DNA from: a virus
Lineage: Duplodnaviria > Heunggongvirae > Uroviricota > Caudoviricetes
Virus record (IMG/VR): IMGVR_UViG_2700989165_000009
Length of the DNA: 22,439 bases
Direction: 5' to 3' (one strand)
A model generated the notes under the pieces. The model was not told the origin of the DNA, made no database searches, and was given only the letters and a program-made list of their open reading frames with translations. Of the stretch, positions 2,884-10,797 are shown one piece after another. The position numbers were made by a program, and so were the translations under genes. Within the stretch, counting starts at the first letter, position 1; the number at the start of each line of letters is the position of its first letter.

Positions 2884-3563
2884 TAGAGTATTGTCCCCCA
2901 TGCTCCAACATCGAACCCGCCGATGTATTCGTTATCCATATCAAACCCAAAGAATTTAGAGCCCTCGGATGGTGCTTCTACCGAAGGCGTTTCAACATCA
3001 CCGGCCCATACGCCAGCTGCTTTAACGGTGAGATAGCCCTGTTTGATAGCGGCAATCAGTTCAAGAGACACATCAGAAATATCAGTCTCGGGGAATACCC
3101 AAACCGATATCGTCATGTCCTGGTTGTCGACAATTTGCATCCTCAGGCCTGAGCCTTCAGTCGCAGCGTCAAGGATGGGAGGCAGAGAGTCGTTCCGACC
3201 GTCCCAGTTGTTGATAGCGATTTTCGCTTTCAGAATGATGCGGTACGTCTCATCGCTTAGCGTCGTATAGCCAGAATCAGGATCATATGGCCCTTTCCAG
3301 ATGCCCTGGTCATACCCAAGCCCGTCAGTGTCCCAGCTGAAATAAACTCCGCTAATTGGCTGGCTGACTATGCGACTGCGTCCGATCCACAGACCGAGGA
3401 TGTCGAGCTGTACACCGACAGCAGTATCAATATCGAAGGCTGTTATAAGCCCTGACATAGTGCTGGACACATCAATCAGCGGGCGGGTGCTCAGATCTAT
3501 ATGGTCAAAAAAGAGTGGCTTGGTAGCGTGGTAGTTAGTGATCAGTTCGGTGTATTTGCTCAT
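2883..3563 (-). CDS. Baseplate wedge / tail-fiber-attachment protein (Mu gp48 or P2 gpI-like position)
   Basis: 226-aa ORF between the baseplate J-like gene and the tail fiber gene, start overlapping the upstream stop. Family assignment is by position and from memory only. Confidence 0.5.
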   Translation of the reverse strand: MSKYTELITNYHATKPLFFDHIDLSTRPLIDVSSTMSGLITAFDIDTAVGVQLDILGLWIGRSRIVSQPISGVYFSWDTDGLGYDQGIWKGPYDPDSGYTTLSDETYRIILKAKIAINNWDGRNDSLPPILDAATEGSGLRMQIVDNQDMTISVWVFPETDISDVSLELIAAIKQGYLTVKAAGVWAGDVETPSVEAPSEGSKFFGFDMDNEYIGGFDVGAWGTIL

Positions 3564-4818
3564 GAGGTCACCGTGATACTGATATTCGCGGTGCTACAGG
3601 ACGCAGAAGCATCATAGGCAATATCAATGTTTGATGCCGATACGCTGCCAGACGACTTACCGATCAGCAGGTCGGTAATATCGTAATAGCGGGCATTCCC
3701 GCCGCTCACAACGCCGAGGTTTGCCGGGGAATAAATACGGCTCAGCAGAACGTCGTCGCCAATTGTTAGGCCATTTATATAATCGGCAACAGCCTGTTTA
3801 ATCTGCTCGCCGATTTGAGAGGTATAGCCGGTAAAAACTTTCAGGGTAATGGCTACGAAAATTGGCACATCGGTAGAGCGCGAAAAACTGATGACGTGTG
3901 GATTACCGTAAGTATCCGGCACCGTGACAGAAGTTTTACCGTAAGTTGCGGTTCCCTGCCCTTTACTCCCCCGGATTGTTTGGGCTATCTCGGTAACATC
4001 CCCTCCATCGACGATGGCGGAAATAGAGTGTGGCGGCAGCCCGTTGCTGTCGGTTGCCCCAGTGTCGTTCTCATATAGTTTGTGACGTGTCACGCCAGCA
4101 ACATTAGCGATAGCACCGTCGACACCTTCAAACGGTGTGATCGATGGTAGCGCGACGCTTTGCCCCTGCCGAATGCGCAGCTCTGCGTCGGTTTCGGCTG
4201 GTGAACCGACAGTAGCCGCAACTGNNNNNNNNNNNNNNNNNNNNNNNNNNNNNNNNNNNNNNNNNNNNNNNNNNNNNNNNNNNNNNNNNNNNNNNNNNNN
4301 NNNNNNNNNNNNNNNNTGTTGATAGTGGTAATAGTCCCGGCCAGCGCCGCAACCGAACCGCTATTCGCACATGTGGCCGTCACCAGCACAGTACCATCAA
4401 CGCCGATCGCTACACTTGCGGGAAAATTCCAGATAATGCCGTTTTTATCCCGTGCGGAGCCATTCGTGATAGTCGTGCCTGCCGTACCGGTTAACAGAAG
4501 GTCAGCAGTAGAGTTTGTCGCTACTTTTCGCGTGATCCCGTTAATTTTCACATTGCTGCTAAGCGCTGCGGCCTGCGCTGTCGTCGGTGAAAAAGAGTTG
4601 TAGATCCCGATAGCGGTGTTGTTAGCGTCATGCACGGCAAGAGCCACCAGCGCGACCATCTGCCCGTCTTTGCTGTCTGGTTCGAGGTAGGCATCACTAC
4701 CGTAAATCTGCCTGAAATAGCTGGTCAGTGTATCTAGGATTGTCTGGTAATCAGGCGCACTAATCCCCTGGGCGGTTACCGTTGCCGATAGCCCCAGCGT
4801 GTCGAGGTTCAAAGCCAT
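3560..4818 (-). CDS. Baseplate J-like protein (Mu gp47-like), interrupted by an assembly gap
   Basis: N-terminal part MALNLDTLGLSATVTAQGISAPDYQTILDTLTSYFRQIYG... runs from 4818 into the N-run. Below the gap an open frame (...SPAETDAELRIRQGQ..., resembling the baseplate J EsDeALR.R motif) continues to the stop at 3560. The two parts are out of frame only because of the arbitrary 92-N spacer, so the 3560..4093 ORF is the C-terminal part, not a separate gene. Confidence 0.7.
4225..4316. other. Assembly gap (92 N)
   Basis: Run of n characters in the sequence. Confidence 1.
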
Positions 4819-5172
4819 TTATGCCTCGCTTGTTACAGTCGTCTGGCCGTAGATTGTGTCAATGGAGGAAGTGAAGGTGACGCGACGGCTGGTGCCGTCA
4901 TAATTGGTATCGAAGGAAAGAATCGACAGAACGCCCGGTGTATCCTGTATGCGTTCGCGTATAGCCAGGATGTAGACATCTGATCGCTGCTTCCCAAGCA
5001 CTGACTGAACATACGGCGTGCCTTCCGTCAGATCGAGAAACCACTGACCGCGCCACAGCTCGAAACGGGTTTTTACGGCCTGGGCGACACATTCCGGACT
5101 GTCGATAAGGAAAGTATCGTCACCCTGGCCGAAAGTGTAATCGCCTTCAGTATCTTCGCGACGGTATCGCAT
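4819..5172 (-). CDS. Small baseplate protein (gpW/Mu gp46-like position)
   Basis: 117-aa ORF coupled to the upstream gene by an ATGA overlap at 5172 and followed directly by the J-like gene. Assignment is by synteny. Confidence 0.5.
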   Translation of the reverse strand: MRYRREDTEGDYTFGQGDDTFLIDSPECVAQAVKTRFELWRGQWFLDLTEGTPYVQSVLGKQRSDVYILAIRERIQDTPGVLSILSFDTNYDGTSRRVTFTSSIDTIYGQTTVTSEA

Positions 5173-5912
5173 TATTGCGGCCCTCCGGTAGTTCCCCCGC
5201 CAGTCTGTACTCCGCCATGTTTATGCGTGGCGACACTGATACCAGAAGCTGTTACGTCATTCGTTACCGTCACCGGCCCAAGCATCGTCGCAGTACCGCC
5301 GCTTTCGCCCATTCCCTGAGACAAGTTGCCATTAATCGTTACGTTGCCGTTCAGCGTGATAGTCGGGGATGTGATTGTCGTTCCACCTTCAGCCGTAGCT
5401 GTAAGCTGGCCCGGTGTTTTAATGGTGATGTTATGTCCTGCGGCGACTTCTACAAACGCCGCACCATCATCGGTTCGCAGCTGCGCGGCGCTGGTACTGA
5501 TACCGCTGATTTTCCGTGCTTGCGACTGCGGGCCAACGATGGCGAACGCATCAGATAAGTCATGCTGGCGCGGGTCGACGGTCTCCTGAACGCCGCCGCT
5601 CTGCCACCAAAAATCGATGCAACGGTCAGCAAAAATCAGGAGGCACTCGTCGCCTTCTTTTACCGGAAAGGTCAGCGTGCAACCGCCGCCGCGCGGGAAG
5701 ATGACCGGCACATCCACCAGCGGTTTTAATTCGGTGGATCCATCGCCAACAATACCGCGTAGCGCCACCTCTACTGTGCAGGTAACAGTCTCAGGATCGA
5801 ACGACTGAATGATGCCGGGCATCGCTACGCGCATCTGGGTAGACACCGAATCGGCAATGGCCTGCGCGGTCTGCTGCTCACCGCCGATCTGTGATTGAGT
5901 TGGAATTGGCAT
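5172..5912 (-). CDS. Baseplate central spike protein (gpV/Mu gp45-like)
   Basis: 246 aa with a Gly/Thr-rich beta-helix-like C-terminal half ending ...VATHKHGGVQTGGGTTGGPQ, an HxH apex-like motif. GGGGG ribosome binding site 4 nt upstream of the ATG at 5912. Confidence 0.6.
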   Translation of the reverse strand: MPIPTQSQIGGEQQTAQAIADSVSTQMRVAMPGIIQSFDPETVTCTVEVALRGIVGDGSTELKPLVDVPVIFPRGGGCTLTFPVKEGDECLLIFADRCIDFWWQSGGVQETVDPRQHDLSDAFAIVGPQSQARKISGISTSAAQLRTDDGAAFVEVAAGHNITIKTPGQLTATAEGGTTITSPTITLNGNVTINGNLSQGMGESGGTATMLGPVTVTNDVTASGISVATHKHGGVQTGGGTTGGPQ

Positions 5913-5923
5913 AAAACCCCCAT

Positions 5924-5947
5924 AAAAAAACCAGCCGAAGCTGGTTT
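5924..5947 (-). terminator. Intrinsic terminator-like hairpin, possibly bidirectional, at the left border of the moron island
   Basis: On the minus strand AAACCAGC-ttcg-GCTGGTTT is followed by TTTT and then ATGGGGG, giving a 7-nt U-run; on the plus strand an A-tract precedes the same hairpin. Confidence 0.5.
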
Positions 5948-6134
5948 GGTATCAATTATCTCTTAGTAACTAAGCTACATCAGTGTGAAGTAAGGCTTTT
6001 CCGCTGCAATGGCACACATTCACAAGGTGTATTAGGATATGTTTGCAACAAGTAAGCATTGAAAATCAATTTCAGCCATGAAGCCGCCATAGAGTGGACC
6101 TGCACCATCGCATTATTGACTACAGGAGTAACAA

Positions 6135-6425
6135 ATGGGATTTAGATTTCGTAAAAGAATCCGGATTGCGCCCGGACTCGCGATCAACATTAGTAAAAGC
6201 GGAGTAAGCACTTCAATTGGTGGTAAAGGTTCCACCATTAACATCGGGAAAAAAGGCGTAAAGATGACAAATGGCCTTCCCGGCACGGGGCTGTCGCATA
6301 CCACTAACCTTTACTCTCCCGGGAAATCGACAGAAAAAAAACAACTTACTCATAAGCAAAAAATAATTAGAAACATCCTGTTCGTAATTATTGTGTTTAT
6401 AATAATTAAAGCTCAATATTTTTGA
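6135..6425 (+). CDS. DUF4236-like small membrane protein (moron gene)
   Basis: ATG at 6135 with a strong AGGAG ribosome binding site 5-6 nt upstream. N-terminus MGFRFRKRIRIAPGLAINISKSG...GLPGTGLS matches the DUF4236 signature as I recall it. C-terminal hydrophobic helix IIRNILFVIIVFIIIKAQYF. It is the only non-acyltransferase gene on the plus strand, and its 3' half is AT-rich. Confidence 0.65.
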   Translation: MGFRFRKRIRIAPGLAINISKSGVSTSIGGKGSTINIGKKGVKMTNGLPGTGLSHTTNLYSPGKSTEKKQLTHKQKIIRNILFVIIVFIIIKAQYF

Positions 6426-6430
6426 CGCAT

Positions 6431-6461
6431 GCCCGCCTATCTGGCGGGCTATTTTACTTTT
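6431..6461 (+). terminator. Rho-independent terminator after the DUF4236 gene
   Basis: GCCCGCC-tatct-GGCGGGC perfect 7-bp GC stem followed by TATTTTACTTTT, starting 5 nt after the TGA stop. It overlaps the last codons of the convergent minus-strand gene. Confidence 0.6.
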
Positions 6462-6793
6462 CGGCAGTCGTATGTTGCATACTGACGCGGCGAATCCATG
6501 CTGGCTTGCAGCCACTGTGCGTTGAGAATGGCTTTGCCGTTTCGATTGATGTACTCAAGACCAACCCATCTTCCAGGCTGATCGGTAGCCATACGCCAAT
6601 CCATCTTGATATTGTTATAATCGCCTTTGTTTTTCAGGAAGGTGATTTTTTGCATTTCTGGCTTTGCGCCATTGATTCTGGCTAAGCCATCATCTGCCCA
6701 ATGGATTTTAAAATCACCACATTGCTGATCCGCAAAAGCGGGTGCTGATATAAGCACCGCGAACACGGTAACAGTGCAAAGTAAATGTCTCAC
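6449..6793 (-). CDS. Small secreted (periplasmic) protein of unknown function (moron gene)
   Basis: GTG start at 6793 preceded by a GAGGTGG ribosome binding site. Predicted Sec signal peptide MRHLLCTVTVFAVLISAPAFA with an AxA cleavage site before DQQ. The roughly 93-aa mature protein has Cys near both ends. It begins 12 nt after the baseplate hub gene stop. Confidence 0.6.
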   Translation of the reverse strand: MRHLLCTVTVFAVLISAPAFADQQCGDFKIHWADDGLARINGAKPEMQKITFLKNKGDYNNIKMDWRMATDQPGRWVGLEYINRNGKAILNAQWLQASMDSPRQYATYDCRKVK

Positions 6794-6805
6794 GGCCCCA
6801 CCTCA

Positions 6806-7870
6806 CTAATTCGTCGTCCCTTGCATTGCTTTCGGGCTATAAAGATCACGAGCGCCACGCGCAAAACACATCAAATCCATGTACCACGCCTGACCTCTGG
6901 TGTCGCCAGTATAGTCGATAGCTTTGACGATATAAACGCCATCCGTCGCAATGCTGGCAGCCTGTGACGTCGTGCCGGTCAGCACACGGTTGCCGTTCTC
7001 TTCTGTTTCGGTGATACGCCCGGGCGACTGTGCTATTTCGCTATTGCCGAGCGTGGCGCGGTACACCGAAGCCTGATCGAGCTGGATAAGACCATTAATA
7101 CGGATGTTTGGGTTTATCAGGCACCGCACGTTTACTCCGCCACCCATCGTTTGTTGCGGCATACCGATCAGGCCAGTATTGGCATTCAACACAATGGCTT
7201 CGTGAATATATTTATCCTCCGGCACCATCTGGACCTGACCATCCACCAGTTGCCATGTCGCTTTGCACTGCGCAGCAATATTATCCATCACGTTGCGGCT
7301 GGATGAGTAAATCGCGCGGCCACGAGGAAACACGGTATCAGGAAAATCGCCGGTAATGCCCTGTGTCACGCCGAACGCGTTGAAATCCTGCATCGTCGCC
7401 CGGTGCAGATCCGCAACGGTATATCCAGCGGCAAGCGTGGTGATGGTGGTCGCATAGAGGAACGCTTCGTGATCACCAATGGCCTGAATCAACACCCAGG
7501 AATCCGTAATGTTGTCCTTCCCGGTGACGGTGAAGCGAATATCACCGTCAAAAATCAGGCCGTAGTTCTGACCGTTCACCTGCCCTATCTGGTCTGGTGA
7601 AATCTCCCGGGACACACCAACCTGGCTCGCATCAACATCCGGCGCTATACCGTCATACCCGGCAATGATGCGAATTTTGGCAAACTCCTGCCCAAGTATC
7701 TTGTTCGTGGTATCGGTCGAAAGGTTGTAAATTTTCACGTTCGCCACGCGCGGCCAGCGTGTGTCTGCCCACTCGATCTGGAACGTGACCTTAAAGTCAG
7801 ACAGGGAAACGCCCTGCCCGTTCTGGTCCAACAGTTGCAGCTCAAAATGGCGCATCCAGTTAAGAGACAT
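6806..7870 (-). CDS. Baseplate hub-like protein (Mu gp44 / P2 gpD-like position)
   Basis: 354-aa ORF in the tail operon between the post-tape-measure small genes and the spike gene. ATG at 7870. Assignment is by synteny. Confidence 0.5.
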   Translation of the reverse strand: MSLNWMRHFELQLLDQNGQGVSLSDFKVTFQIEWADTRWPRVANVKIYNLSTDTTNKILGQEFAKIRIIAGYDGIAPDVDASQVGVSREISPDQIGQVNGQNYGLIFDGDIRFTVTGKDNITDSWVLIQAIGDHEAFLYATTITTLAAGYTVADLHRATMQDFNAFGVTQGITGDFPDTVFPRGRAIYSSSRNVMDNIAAQCKATWQLVDGQVQMVPEDKYIHEAIVLNANTGLIGMPQQTMGGGVNVRCLINPNIRINGLIQLDQASVYRATLGNSEIAQSPGRITETEENGNRVLTGTTSQAASIATDGVYIVKAIDYTGDTRGQAWYMDLMCFARGARDLYSPKAMQGTTN

Positions 7871-7872
7871 TT

Positions 7873-8178
7873 CTACTCCTGTACGAAAATGAGGTGGCTG
7901 TATGTGCCGAGGTTGGTTTTGGTGGGCTCGTCTGGTGCGCCCTTATCGGTCGCCACCACCAGCGCGCCATCAATGCCAAGCTGTGGATATTGTCGTAAAA
8001 GGTTTACGCCGGTCAGTAGAGGTACGCCAGAGAGAAGCGCGGCACCGCCGCTATCCATCACGTCCATAATCCAGCCAGCCGCATCACGCCAGATGATCCT
8101 GAGTGTATACGTGGTATTGCCCAGCAAAACTCGGAACTGCTGATTGTCAGGAGAAAGCGGTATTTCGTTAAACTGCAT
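7873..8178 (-). CDS. Small tail/baseplate assembly protein
   Basis: 101-aa ORF, tightly coupled to flanking genes, ATG at 8178. Confidence 0.45.
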   Translation of the reverse strand: MQFNEIPLSPDNQQFRVLLGNTTYTLRIIWRDAAGWIMDVMDSGGAALLSGVPLLTGVNLLRQYPQLGIDGALVVATDKGAPDEPTKTNLGTYSHLIFVQE

Positions 8179-8179
8179 A

Positions 8180-8782
8180 TCATCCCCCGAATGCTGATGT
8201 AACGCTTCCGCCCAGCTGGCTCAGCAAGGATTCGTTTGGCGGTGTAGTGGATTTCATCCCGGAATTCTGCACCGCCGATGTGCTGACGCCATCCTGCATA
8301 TCTGATTTATCTGCAACGCTAACGCTCTGCGTCTGCGACATGATCACTTCACGCAGGGTAAGCGTGCAGTTCAGCACGTTCTCGCTGGTTTTATCCGTTG
8401 TCACCTCGATGGCTCGCACCAGCATATTGCTGTAAACCCGCTTTCCGGTCACTACATCGAACGGCACCCTAGAGGACTGGAGATCCAGTAGTTGCTGATA
8501 GGTCTCTTTCGGGCTAAGTCCGGCGCTGAGGCCGATTGACGATGTATCAATGAAGTCCAGCAACGAACCGCCACCTGCGAAGCCGCATTCCATCGTGACT
8601 TCGCTGGGGCGCTTATACGCATGATCGGCGATGAAACCCGACGCGCTATTCGTTGTTGGCTTCTCCACCGGGTGCTCAGTAATTTCGAGCGCATCAGAAT
8701 GCTTTTCAGAAACAACCACGCTGGGGATTAATATTCCAATTCGCCGGGATTGCTGGCGAAAAATTGCTGATAAAATATCCAT
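8180..8782 (-). CDS. Tail protein downstream of the tape measure gene (distal tail/baseplate component)
   Basis: 200-aa ORF whose ATG at 8782 overlaps the tape measure stop as TAATG. Confidence 0.45.
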   Translation of the reverse strand: MDILSAIFRQQSRRIGILIPSVVVSEKHSDALEITEHPVEKPTTNSASGFIADHAYKRPSEVTMECGFAGGGSLLDFIDTSSIGLSAGLSPKETYQQLLDLQSSRVPFDVVTGKRVYSNMLVRAIEVTTDKTSENVLNCTLTLREVIMSQTQSVSVADKSDMQDGVSTSAVQNSGMKSTTPPNESLLSQLGGSVTSAFGG

Positions 8783-10797
8783 TATCTCGGTCCTGCGGGG
8801 AGTTGCTGGGTTAACTGTGAATTCACGCCCTTTTGACGGTCAACAGTCAAACGGGCAGCCTCGCGCGGATCGAAAACGCCGTGGATGTTAATATTCGTTT
8901 CCTGCTGAATCACCGGGGCGCTGGTGGGCATATTGCTCATTACTTTCGGAATGTAGTTGCGCGTTTCCTGCGGCATTAGCCCCATTCCATAACGCTTAAC
9001 ATTCCCGATCCCCCAGTTATATGATGCCAGTGCTTTGCTAAGGTCTCCGCCGTTCTGCCGCAACAGCTGGCTCAGGTACTTAGCGGCTGCCTGAGCTGAC
9101 TTTTCCGGGTCGAATACATCATTCCCACGCAGGCCCATGTCGCGCGCCGTGCCATCCATAAACTGAAACAGACCTTTAGCGCCAGCGCCTGAAACGGCGA
9201 ACTGATTACCGCCCGATTCCGTTATGGCCACGCTGCGCAATAACCCCTCCGGAAGCCGGTAGAGCTGTTCCAGGTTGGTAAACATCGGCTGCATCCATCC
9301 CAGCAGTTCAGAGCCTGCTTTGGTTGGCTGTGGCCGCTTAACTGACTGGCCGAGCTGCTCAGGCTCATCATCACCGAACCAGCCGCGCACCGTTCGGCCC
9401 ACGCTGCGAGGATCGAATCCCCAGTGCTCTTTAATCCAGTCGGCGGTTCCGTTGGCGCTGTCTGTTACCATCGGCATCGCTGACGGATTTTCGCTGCCCT
9501 GATTAAGCATCTGTTTGCCGATGCTGGCGGCATCAGCCCAGCGGCCATCTTTAATGGCGTTGAGCAGGTCGGCGATCATGTTCAGCATCTTGCCGAACTC
9601 ACCCATTTGCGAAATGAAGTTGCTAAAATCCCACTTTAGGGACCATGACTTGGGGTCAATACCGAGCAACTTAGCCAGCGCTTTTGTCAGGTCCGTAACA
9701 GTCTTTTTCAGGTCACCAATCATTTTGACGGCCTGATCAATTTCAGTCTTCCATTTCCCCCAGTCAATCAGGCTTTTGCCACCTTCTTTCCACGTCTGGT
9801 AATCATCCAAGAGCAGACCAAGTGCAATAATAAGCGTCGTTATCATGCCCAAGGGTGATGACATGAAAGCGGTATTTAGCAGCCGCCATGCAACCAACAG
9901 CCCACTGAACAATGCGATAAGCTGCTGCGTGGCTGGGTTCAGCTTTTTGAACCAGGCGATCACACCCTCAACAGCTTGCCCAGTTCGCCATAACACGCGG
10001 GTAATCGCGTCACCTGCCCAGAGAATTCCTTTGATGATCTTCGTGATGACCGCTTCAATCTTCGGCCAGTTGTCGAGTATCTGCCTGCGGAAGTTATCAA
10101 TACTGCCAGCAAGGCCACCAGCTAGGTTAGAGCCAATCTTGTCTTTCGCCTGTCCAAGCGTCATCGTCAGATTACGCATGGAGGTCATGAAAATATTGGA
10201 CTGTTTAGCCGCTGACTCAGCATTAAAACCAATACGCTTTGCCGTCAACGCGTACTCAGAACTGAGCTGCCCCATCCCTCTGCGCATCGCCATCAGCGTG
10301 TTTTCATCGATGCCGAGCATCTGCGCGTATTGCTTCGCGCGGTAATACGGCATGTTGTTGAGCTTTTGGCCAACGCCAGTAAAGATGGCAGCAGTATCAC
10401 GCATCTTTCCGCTGGCATCGCGGGTCTGGACACCAAGACGGTTCAGGAACCCTTCCGCCCCCGGATTGCTACGCATGAAGCCAGCCAACCCTTCGAGGGA
10501 GGACATAGCCGACTCGGCGCTGGCACCGGTTTGCGATGCGGCGTATCCCAGCGCTTTGATGCCCTGGACACTGGCCCCCGTCCGCTGGGATGCCCAGTAA
10601 ATTTTATCCAGACCGTTCGCGATCTGAGTGGTAAATCCGACAATGCTCAGCGCTGCGCCTTTCACCACCGCGCCGACCTTCAGAACGTTCGCGGTAACGC
10701 CTTTCAGCACGGCTTCAAACTTATTAGCGCCAGCCTGATCGATATCGAATCCCAGCGAAACAAGGAAATCTTTAATCGTATCTGCGTTACCGCTCAT
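8782..10797 (-). CDS. Tail tape measure protein with a C-terminal lytic transglycosylase (SLT) domain
   Basis: 671 aa. Helical Ala/Gly/Lys-rich N-terminal half, an internal hydrophobic segment (LIALFSGLLVAWRLL...LIIALGLLL), and a C-terminal AITESGGNQFAVSGAGAKGLFQFM...YNWGIGNV region that matches the family-1 lytic transglycosylase motifs. ATG at 10797. Confidence 0.85.
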   Translation of the reverse strand: MSGNADTIKDFLVSLGFDIDQAGANKFEAVLKGVTANVLKVGAVVKGAALSIVGFTTQIANGLDKIYWASQRTGASVQGIKALGYAASQTGASAESAMSSLEGLAGFMRSNPGAEGFLNRLGVQTRDASGKMRDTAAIFTGVGQKLNNMPYYRAKQYAQMLGIDENTLMAMRRGMGQLSSEYALTAKRIGFNAESAAKQSNIFMTSMRNLTMTLGQAKDKIGSNLAGGLAGSIDNFRRQILDNWPKIEAVITKIIKGILWAGDAITRVLWRTGQAVEGVIAWFKKLNPATQQLIALFSGLLVAWRLLNTAFMSSPLGMITTLIIALGLLLDDYQTWKEGGKSLIDWGKWKTEIDQAVKMIGDLKKTVTDLTKALAKLLGIDPKSWSLKWDFSNFISQMGEFGKMLNMIADLLNAIKDGRWADAASIGKQMLNQGSENPSAMPMVTDSANGTADWIKEHWGFDPRSVGRTVRGWFGDDEPEQLGQSVKRPQPTKAGSELLGWMQPMFTNLEQLYRLPEGLLRSVAITESGGNQFAVSGAGAKGLFQFMDGTARDMGLRGNDVFDPEKSAQAAAKYLSQLLRQNGGDLSKALASYNWGIGNVKRYGMGLMPQETRNYIPKVMSNMPTSAPVIQQETNINIHGVFDPREAARLTVDRQKGVNSQLTQQLPAGPR

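Follow-up and report, generated by a model that had tools for sequence, protein, structure and literature searches.

We examined the interval between the baseplate hub and central spike genes (positions 5913–6805) in a 22,439-nucleotide stretch of viral DNA, IMG/VR record IMGVR_UViG_2700989165_000009; the whole of this stretch is referred to here as the window. Its minus strand encodes, from the terminase to the tail fibres, the virion module of an E. coli prophage that is a SEN34-like (Brunovirus-type) temperate myovirus. From the tape measure protein (TMP) gene to the baseplate wedge, the minus-strand tail genes follow one another with gaps of 0–2 nt or overlaps of 1–4 nt, and the sole break in this operon is the 893 nt from the stop codon of the hub gene (6806) to the start codon of the spike gene (5912). 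The left anchor of the interval is the 354-residue hub (6806–7870, minus strand), which matches phrog_196 baseplate hub (E 3.4e-82), scores 26.6 bits against Pfam E217_GP41, slightly under the 27-bit cut-off, and is 53–99% identical across 21 species loci. The right anchor is the 246-residue gpV-like central spike (5172–5912, minus strand), with the spike N-terminal domain PF18352 (E 9.5e-42) and the Apex motif PF18946. Two genes lie inside the gap and converge with 23 nt between their stop codons: p114, next to the hub and on the same strand, and a DUF4236 gene on the plus strand, antisense to the late operon. The guanine-plus-cytosine (GC) content is 39.2% in the DUF4236 gene, 41.0% over 5913–6134 and 45.8% in p114, against 53–57% in the flanking tail genes. 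An initial annotation of the window had described a seamless minus-strand tail operon interrupted between hub and spike by a partly AT-rich island, with a plus-strand DUF4236-like protein with a C-terminal membrane anchor and a minus-strand signal-peptide protein encoded convergently, and each of these observations is borne out by the present analysis. Further open reading frames (ORFs) at 6213–6515 (minus), 6422–6685 (plus) and 5980–6108 (minus) were rejected as overlapping shadows, the antisense ORF over p114 being conserved only because p114 is.

The p114 gene (6449–6793, minus strand) encodes 114 amino acids from a GTG start and matches phrog_3443 (E 6.9e-46), a family of unknown function. 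A strong ribosome-binding site lies 12 nt past the hub stop codon, and p114 is evidently translated next after the hub as part of the late operon. The N-terminus of the protein is basic, with a hydrophobic core at residues 4–18 followed by an A-F-A/D cleavage-type motif; in the family alignment this region is divergent yet always hydrophobic and ends in A-x-A, with an invariant Cys-Gly next. Two cysteines are invariant, C24 in the Cys-Gly and C109 near the C-terminus. The AlphaFold model (predicted local distance difference test score, pLDDT, 83.6) is an 8-stranded up-and-down beta-barrel of avidin-like topology, and the product is predicted to be a small, Sec-exported, disulfide-bonded periplasmic beta-barrel that is a lipoprotein in some alleles. 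The family is small, with 60 clusters in an exhaustive hidden Markov model profile search of 1.84 billion representatives, in which no link from the p114 profile to a larger family was found. Twenty phage records carry p114, all from Enterobacterales hosts. The model found no match below E 0.06 among viral structures (Foldseek, BFVD).

To place the interval among its relatives, 21 species-representative genomes were combined with phage and E. coli records and the window, giving 27 complete hub-to-spike intervals (loci are numbered L002, L004 and so on where they need to be told apart). In 26 of them the gene that comes right behind the hub, in the same orientation, is a p114 homologue of 33–96% identity, the hosts being E. 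coli, Klebsiella, Salmonella, Citrobacter, Pantoea, Rahnella, Yersinia, Serratia, Erwinia and other Enterobacterales. The exception, L031, has a 379-residue lipoprotein after the hub, so that an exported protein is encoded in this position at every one of the 27 loci. The spacing between p114 and the spike is 536 nt in the window and ranges from 61 nt to about 1.8 kb in the relatives. At two loci (L029 from Rahnella and L042 from Pantoea) the order is simply hub, p114, 61–62 nt and spike, and since p114 is kept there beside an empty slot, it counts as backbone and the insert makes up only about 0.5 kb of the interval. DNA homology with relatives that carry other cargo stops at about 5935–5947 and resumes at about 6450–6465, which is the p114 stop codon, placing the insert at about 5948–6448. 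DUF4236 is absent from 23 of the 26 loci that carry p114. On this comparison p114 reads as a lineage-conserved backbone gene of the late operon and not as a recent insert, and the remaining 0.5 kb (about 5948–6448) is a cargo slot that starts at the p114 stop codon and is closed by an intrinsic terminator lying shortly upstream of the spike ribosome-binding site. Comparison shows two independent layers in the interval, a p114 gene kept by the lineage and an exchangeable cargo slot; our explanation as a whole we consider probable.

At least 12 unrelated cassette types occupy the slot among the 27 loci. They include Phd/Doc (as annotated) in L002 and L030, a PD-Lambda-1 homologue in L035 (PADLOC E 2.8e-82), PDC-S42 in L033 (E 1.7e-36), an EACC1-domain gene in three loci and a Clp-protease-like gene, with further cassettes, among them a HEPN-like pair and Cys-rich membrane proteins, judged by reading their translations. 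PD-Lambda-1, also known as SNIPE, is a nuclease of the membrane that cuts phage DNA as it is being injected (PMC13190303). Conserved flanks therefore enclose many alternative cargos, recognised defence systems are among these cargos, and the stretch from p114 to the terminator is, as far as sequence comparison goes, a recombination-exchangeable slot and a prophage moron and defence hotspot. The cargo of the window itself is not a known defence gene by this measure, with DUF4236 giving no PADLOC match up to E = 1. The slot resembles the hotspots of P2-like phages and P4 satellites (bioRxiv 10.1101/2021.01.21.427644), which also have conserved core flanks, a short locus and many cargos including validated defence systems. 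It differs from them in belonging to the SEN34-like lineage, in lying inside the baseplate operon and in being bounded by an exported-protein gene and a conserved terminator. No published description of a hub-spike hotspot was found in a limited literature search.

Some of the cassettes are of interest in their own right. The L035 gene (2830–4059, in a Pantoea dispersa prophage) encodes a SNIPE homologue made up of a transmembrane segment, a coiled coil and a T5orf172 nuclease domain. A two-gene cassette for proteins of about 250–263 and 130–165 amino acids recurs in L037 (6025–7186), L040 (5477–6630) and L045 (5057–6206); the smaller protein looks HEPN-like on reading and has no Pfam or PADLOC match, and the pair is a candidate for an undescribed toxin-antitoxin or defence system. 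A second recurrent cassette, in L032 (5464–6380), L034 (5438–5887) and L041 (5468–6375), is built around a protein of about 149 amino acids, for which neither Pfam nor PADLOC gave a match in a scan that covered this protein and not its partners. In L032 and L041 its gene is followed by one for a homologous coiled-coil protein of about 155 amino acids with a C-terminal membrane anchor, and in L034 by a gene unrelated to that partner and related to a gene in L038.

The interval contains two intrinsic terminators. On the plus strand, the DUF4236 terminator (6431–6459, hairpin 6431–6449) reads GCCCGCC-TATCT-GGCGGGC and then TATTTTACTT, with seven G-C pairs; it sits between the two genes, abuts the p114 stop codon and is also found in L004, which has the same cassette. 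On the minus strand, an operon-internal terminator (5920–5947, hairpin 5947–5928) reads AAACCAGC-TTCG-GCTGGTTT and then TTTTAT, forms the right boundary of the slot and stops 6 nt short of the spike ribosome-binding site (GGGGG, 5917–5921). Raw terminator patterns are locally no commoner than shuffling the sequence would give (4 against an expected 3.4), and the significance of the spike-side terminator rests instead on its conservation with compensatory stems. A GC-rich hairpin followed by T6–8 stands 10–20 nt before the spike ATG in 26 of the 27 loci, whatever the cargo and also where the slot is empty, and the stem varies in a compensatory way (ACCCGC/GCGGGT, AACCAGC/GCTGGTT, AGCCGC/GCGGCT, GCCCAC/GTGGGT). 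By reading of the terminator list, in 20 kb of the window only one minus-strand terminator besides it is convincing.

A conserved terminator in the middle of a tail operon implies regulated read-through, probably antitermination. The lambda late-operon morons lom and bor are read through by Q-modified polymerase, and they share with the present slot the arrangement of terminator-flanked accessory genes within a long late operon under lambda-like regulation. The likeness is incomplete, as the spike-side terminator here is a fixed element of the backbone even when the slot is empty, and antitermination is what we infer for it. Antitermination past the conserved terminator is probable because SEN34-type phages have lambda-like regulation, SEN34 being a myovirus whose genes for replication and regulation are lambda-like (PMC5261728). 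The late operon would be silent in a lysogen, so the antisense DUF4236 gene could be transcribed, ending at its own terminator, while transcripts of same-strand cargo in relatives would stop at the conserved terminator and leave the baseplate genes unexpressed. After induction, a lambda-type antiterminated late transcript would read through to the spike gene.

The DUF4236 gene (6135–6425, plus strand) encodes 96 amino acids behind an AGGAG ribosome-binding site (6124–6128) and matches PF14020 with E 1.8e-20, scoring 73.6 bits against a cut-off of 27 and covering profile positions 1–54 of 55; its PHROG matches are to nine families, all of unknown function. Upstream of it lies an AT-rich region of 187 nt (5948–6134, plus strand; GC 41% over 5913–6134) that is the presumed promoter site. 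The protein consists of a basic beta-meander N-terminal domain (residues 1–60), a basic linker and a single C-terminal hydrophobic helix, at residues 77–95 by hydropathy and 73–95 in the model, and is predicted to sit in the inner membrane, its N-terminus in and its C-terminus out, leaving the N-terminal domain in the cytoplasm. The model (pLDDT 81.3) has six strands forming the beta-meander and the helix, and its structural neighbours were uninformative. The cassette is extra DNA that is missing in L029 and L042, has a deviant GC content and ends in its own terminator (by pattern match only), and it is a genuine AT-rich moron inside the baseplate operon, in the sense of Juhala and Hendrix as summarised in PMC3594210.

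Homologues of DUF4236 are spread over many phyla. Their 55-residue N-terminal domain leads by way of a linker, basic or of low complexity, to one or two transmembrane helices, with extra domains in some of them (SH3 in Vibrio, TM2 in Pasteurella and Roseburia phages). In Klebsiella and Hafnia SEN34-like phages the gene has the same slot and the same antisense orientation as here. Elsewhere it lies between the tail tip genes K and I in a lambda-like prophage of Pseudomonas syringae, antisense between the TMP and M genes in a Leclercia prophage, between the tail assembly chaperone and TMP genes in a metagenomic siphovirus and the C. difficile phiCD111 group, between the tail tube and TMP genes in Acinetobacter phage Ab11510-phi, one gene past an E217_GP41-type hub in Pasteurella phage Pmp3, and between repressor and integrase in FP_Epona, Roseburia phage Shimadzu and Ruminococcus phage RG-TP1. 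In three temperate phages of Firmicutes the repressor-integrase DUF4236 gene is co-oriented with both neighbours (L049 3501–4028, L051 3501–4088, L052 3501–4532).

Several of these positions are those of known exclusion genes. HK97 gp15 is the superinfection-exclusion moron of Cumby et al. (2012), as reviewed in PMC3594210, where it is placed at the chaperone-TMP junction, identical to the position of the DUF4236 genes of other siphoviruses. Like DUF4236, gp15 is a small inner-membrane protein whose gene is an independent unit within the tail operon, with a composition unlike that of the backbone. It differs in being YebO-like and has no sequence relation to DUF4236 (a Pfam scan of the window protein at E up to 0.01 returned DUF4236 alone, with no gp15/YebO-type family), and the DUF4236 gene is antisense, lies between the hub and spike of a myovirus and encodes a putative exclusion protein. 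The repressor-integrase interval of lactococcal and streptococcal phages houses genes for membrane-bound exclusion proteins such as Sie2009 and ltp (PMC7693887, PMC3952083), small membrane-anchored proteins encoded where some DUF4236 proteins are. Here the likeness is positional, Sie2009 having an N-terminal anchor and Ltp being a lipoprotein, whereas DUF4236 has a cytoplasmic N-terminal domain and then a transmembrane helix. From these positions we tentatively suggest that the DUF4236 protein may be expressed in the lysogen and block the entry of a superinfecting genome at the inner membrane, like HK97 gp15 and Sie2009.

Several results weigh against this suggestion. The promoter scan gave no match above chance, with no plus-strand sigma-70 consensus match upstream of DUF4236, and neither DUF4236 nor p114 matches any PADLOC or NCBIfam model, the best PADLOC score for p114 (E 0.045) being at chance level. 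DUF4236 genes are also present in large lytic Klebsiella phages and jumbo Brevundimonas phages, on contigs like those of plasmids or integrative and conjugative elements, beside RadC, and on Vibrio chromosomal islands as a transmembrane-SH3 fusion, so the role of the family may exceed phage exclusion. In addition, the phiCD111 protein has no predicted transmembrane helix. In a limited search of the literature we found one incidental mention of DUF4236. A different function for such a membrane protein would be that of a membrane-active toxin, an abortive-infection effector or a holin/antiholin-type protein of lysis timing, but the cassette has no partner antitoxin gene, its antisense orientation to the late genes fits a lysis function poorly, and the conserved domain, which is not hydrophobic, is predicted to lie in the cytoplasm, which together make this unlikely.

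For p114, comparison can be made with small exported phage proteins that exclude other phages. T5 Llp and T4 Spackle are periplasmic or lipoprotein exclusion factors. Glo, from Vibrio phage K139, is a periplasmic exclusion factor as cited in PMC3952083, and Cor is an exported one as cited in PMC3594210. Like p114 these proteins are small and exported, and their genes are often found by tail or receptor-binding genes; p114 has the export signals, the lipoprotein alleles and the linkage to the tail tip. They differ in showing no sequence or fold match to p114, which is an avidin-like beta-barrel in its model. We raise the possibility, a doubtful one, that p114 acts as a periplasmic binder that would hinder envelope crossing by like phages or mask their receptor during and after lytic growth.

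The lipoprotein alleles are distinctive. Lipoboxes (SGC, AGC) are confined to the fused alleles of L004, L028 and L037 and to the L031 protein, and the window allele carries a type-I motif (AFA/DQQC) and no lipobox. The fusions are 288–296 amino acids long (L004 2699–3589, L028 5099–5989, L037 5075–5941, in hub-forward coordinates, as for L031, with L004 reverse-complemented relative to the stored locus), with the p114 domain at the C-terminus and an unrecognised N-terminal domain of about 200 amino acids. The L031 lipoprotein (5068–6207) has an N-terminal domain related to theirs and no p114 domain. RefSeq treats the L004 fusion gene as a truncated pseudogene.

Mosaicism shows at a second place, about 6693–6851, covering the 5' third of p114 and the last hub codons, and relatives with a 96–98% identical hub carry p114 alleles that are just 62–74% identical. 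We also considered whether p114 is allele-matched to the spike and rejected this, as in L025 the same p114 goes with a spike of 65% identity and in L027 and L004 a different p114 goes with spikes of 93–99% identity; p114 alleles assort independently of hub and spike alleles. This independence argues against a tightly matched p114-spike interaction.

The position of p114 could instead mean that it is a morphogenetic or structural baseplate factor, fixed between hub and spike for that reason, with an N-terminus that is not a cleaved signal. Its constant place in the late operon, the tight spacing to the hub and its presence throughout the lineage, including phages isolated as particles, are what such a factor would show. 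However, the N-terminus changes in sequence while always staying hydrophobic and ending in A-x-A, the mature part begins at the invariant Cys-Gly and has its second invariant Cys at the C-terminal end, three alleles are lipobox lipoproteins, and the alleles are mosaic relative to hub and spike, so we hold a structural role to be quite improbable. Membership of the virion in particular is very unlikely because p114 is predicted to leave the cytoplasm; an exported, disulfide-bonded protein could not join tail assembly there, and a periplasmic role in infection or release is therefore favoured.

With two envelope proteins encoded side by side, the whole 0.9 kb might be regarded as one horizontally acquired island whose products form a single system, for example a membrane protein and its periplasmic partner, much as the initial annotation proposed. 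The two genes are adjacent and convergent, share a hairpin, both fall below the GC content of the backbone and are found together in E. coli, Klebsiella and Hafnia prophages. Against this, p114 occurs with many other cargos and with none, DUF4236 is found in unrelated phages and other mobile elements without p114, the homology breakpoints part the two genes exactly at the p114 stop codon, and the p114 family is limited to one phage lineage while DUF4236 extends across many phyla. We regard a single island with one accessory system as very improbable. What stands of the moron island is its DUF4236 part, which is extra, AT-rich, antisense and has its own terminator, p114 being backbone. The hairpin terminators that were to bracket the island both exist, but they do not bracket it, one lying between the genes (6431–6449) and the other preceding the spike (5947–5928). 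Neither protein had been recognised as a member of a characterised family; both are of unknown function, and both do belong to families, Pfam DUF4236 and phrog_3443. Whether related prophages have hub and spike directly adjacent had been posed as a test, and none of the 27 loci has them so. Conservation of both genes at this position as virion components in related phages had been named as evidence against the proposal; conservation is seen for p114 (26 of 27), for which membership of the virion is unlikely.

A last reading, that p114 is a small-molecule binder of avidin or calycin type (e.g., for biotin or lipid) that alters periplasmic chemistry and not phage entry, can be put aside as highly improbable, since the eight-stranded barrel agrees with avidins but the profile comparison with PDB sequences stays at chance level (single-domain avidins at E ~0.7, with nanobodies scoring equally, and the match at E 0.0045 being a tandem avidin construct that sums two weak domains), there is no Pfam match, the mature protein is about 91 amino acids long against about 125 for avidins, and no avidin-family protein was noticed among the matches in the 1.84-billion-representative library, a nameless library in which this point rests only on the small size of the family.

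Returning to exclusion, the two suggestions can be joined into a more speculative one, which we put forward as somewhat unlikely in its entirety. DUF4236 would be a widespread but unrecognised entry-exclusion family of mobile elements that acts on the tape-measure or tail-tip injection step at the inner membrane, p114 would be a second, lineage-specific periplasmic exclusion factor on an avidin-like barrel, and the 0.9-kb interval would be a two-tier envelope block. If true, the exclusion-family reading would explain why DUF4236 genes of Proteobacteria and Firmicutes recur in lysogeny modules and next to the genes for tape measure, hub and spike.

The surrounding tail genes are all on the minus strand. 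Before the hub come TMP (8782–10797), Dit (8180–8782) and plug (7873–8178), and the spike is followed by a gene at 4819–5172 and a second at 4090–4818. A run of N at 4225–4316 masks part of the baseplate-J gene, which appears as two ORFs (3560–4093 and 4090–4818). At 394–1395 on the plus strand, adjoining the tail-fibre and fibre-assembly genes, the window encodes a 333-residue Acyl_transf_3 protein (PF01757, E 2.5e-25), a gene type encoded by O-antigen acetylase conversion morons. A near-identical relative is the prophage of E. coli TOK-001 beside yciI/tonB, with 99.8% identity over the region around the interval; at the end where the window has Acyl_transf_3, that prophage instead carries alternative fibre genes and a DNA invertase. 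Remoter relatives include Salmonella phage SEN34 (genus Brunovirus), Klebsiella phages GZ7, RCIP0034 and Mulock, a Wanchaivirus record that matches in the same way as GZ7 and RCIP0034, Escherichia phage vB_EcoM-606R2 and Citrobacter phage Omnitron. The hub-spike junction is present in 42 of 5,426 complete E. coli genomes, and among the matches listed a DUF4236 gene is annotated beneath the junction match in 19 of 30 E. coli records.

Morons and prophage defence hotspots are well known as kinds of element, and it is the two protein families and this hotspot that are uncharacterised. The hotspot, undescribed in the limited literature searched, has sharp limits inside the baseplate operon of temperate SEN34-like myoviruses and occurs commonly in Enterobacterales. 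Flanked by the p114 3' end on one side and by the terminator with the spike 5' end on the other, both easy anchors, the slot could be mined for new defence genes. It is also unusual for a virion module to encode a conserved exported beta-barrel, as predicted for p114, in the late tail operon. DUF4236 is a large family of unknown function, and since its genomic positions mirror those of known superinfection-exclusion genes, they provide a testable hypothesis of what it may do.

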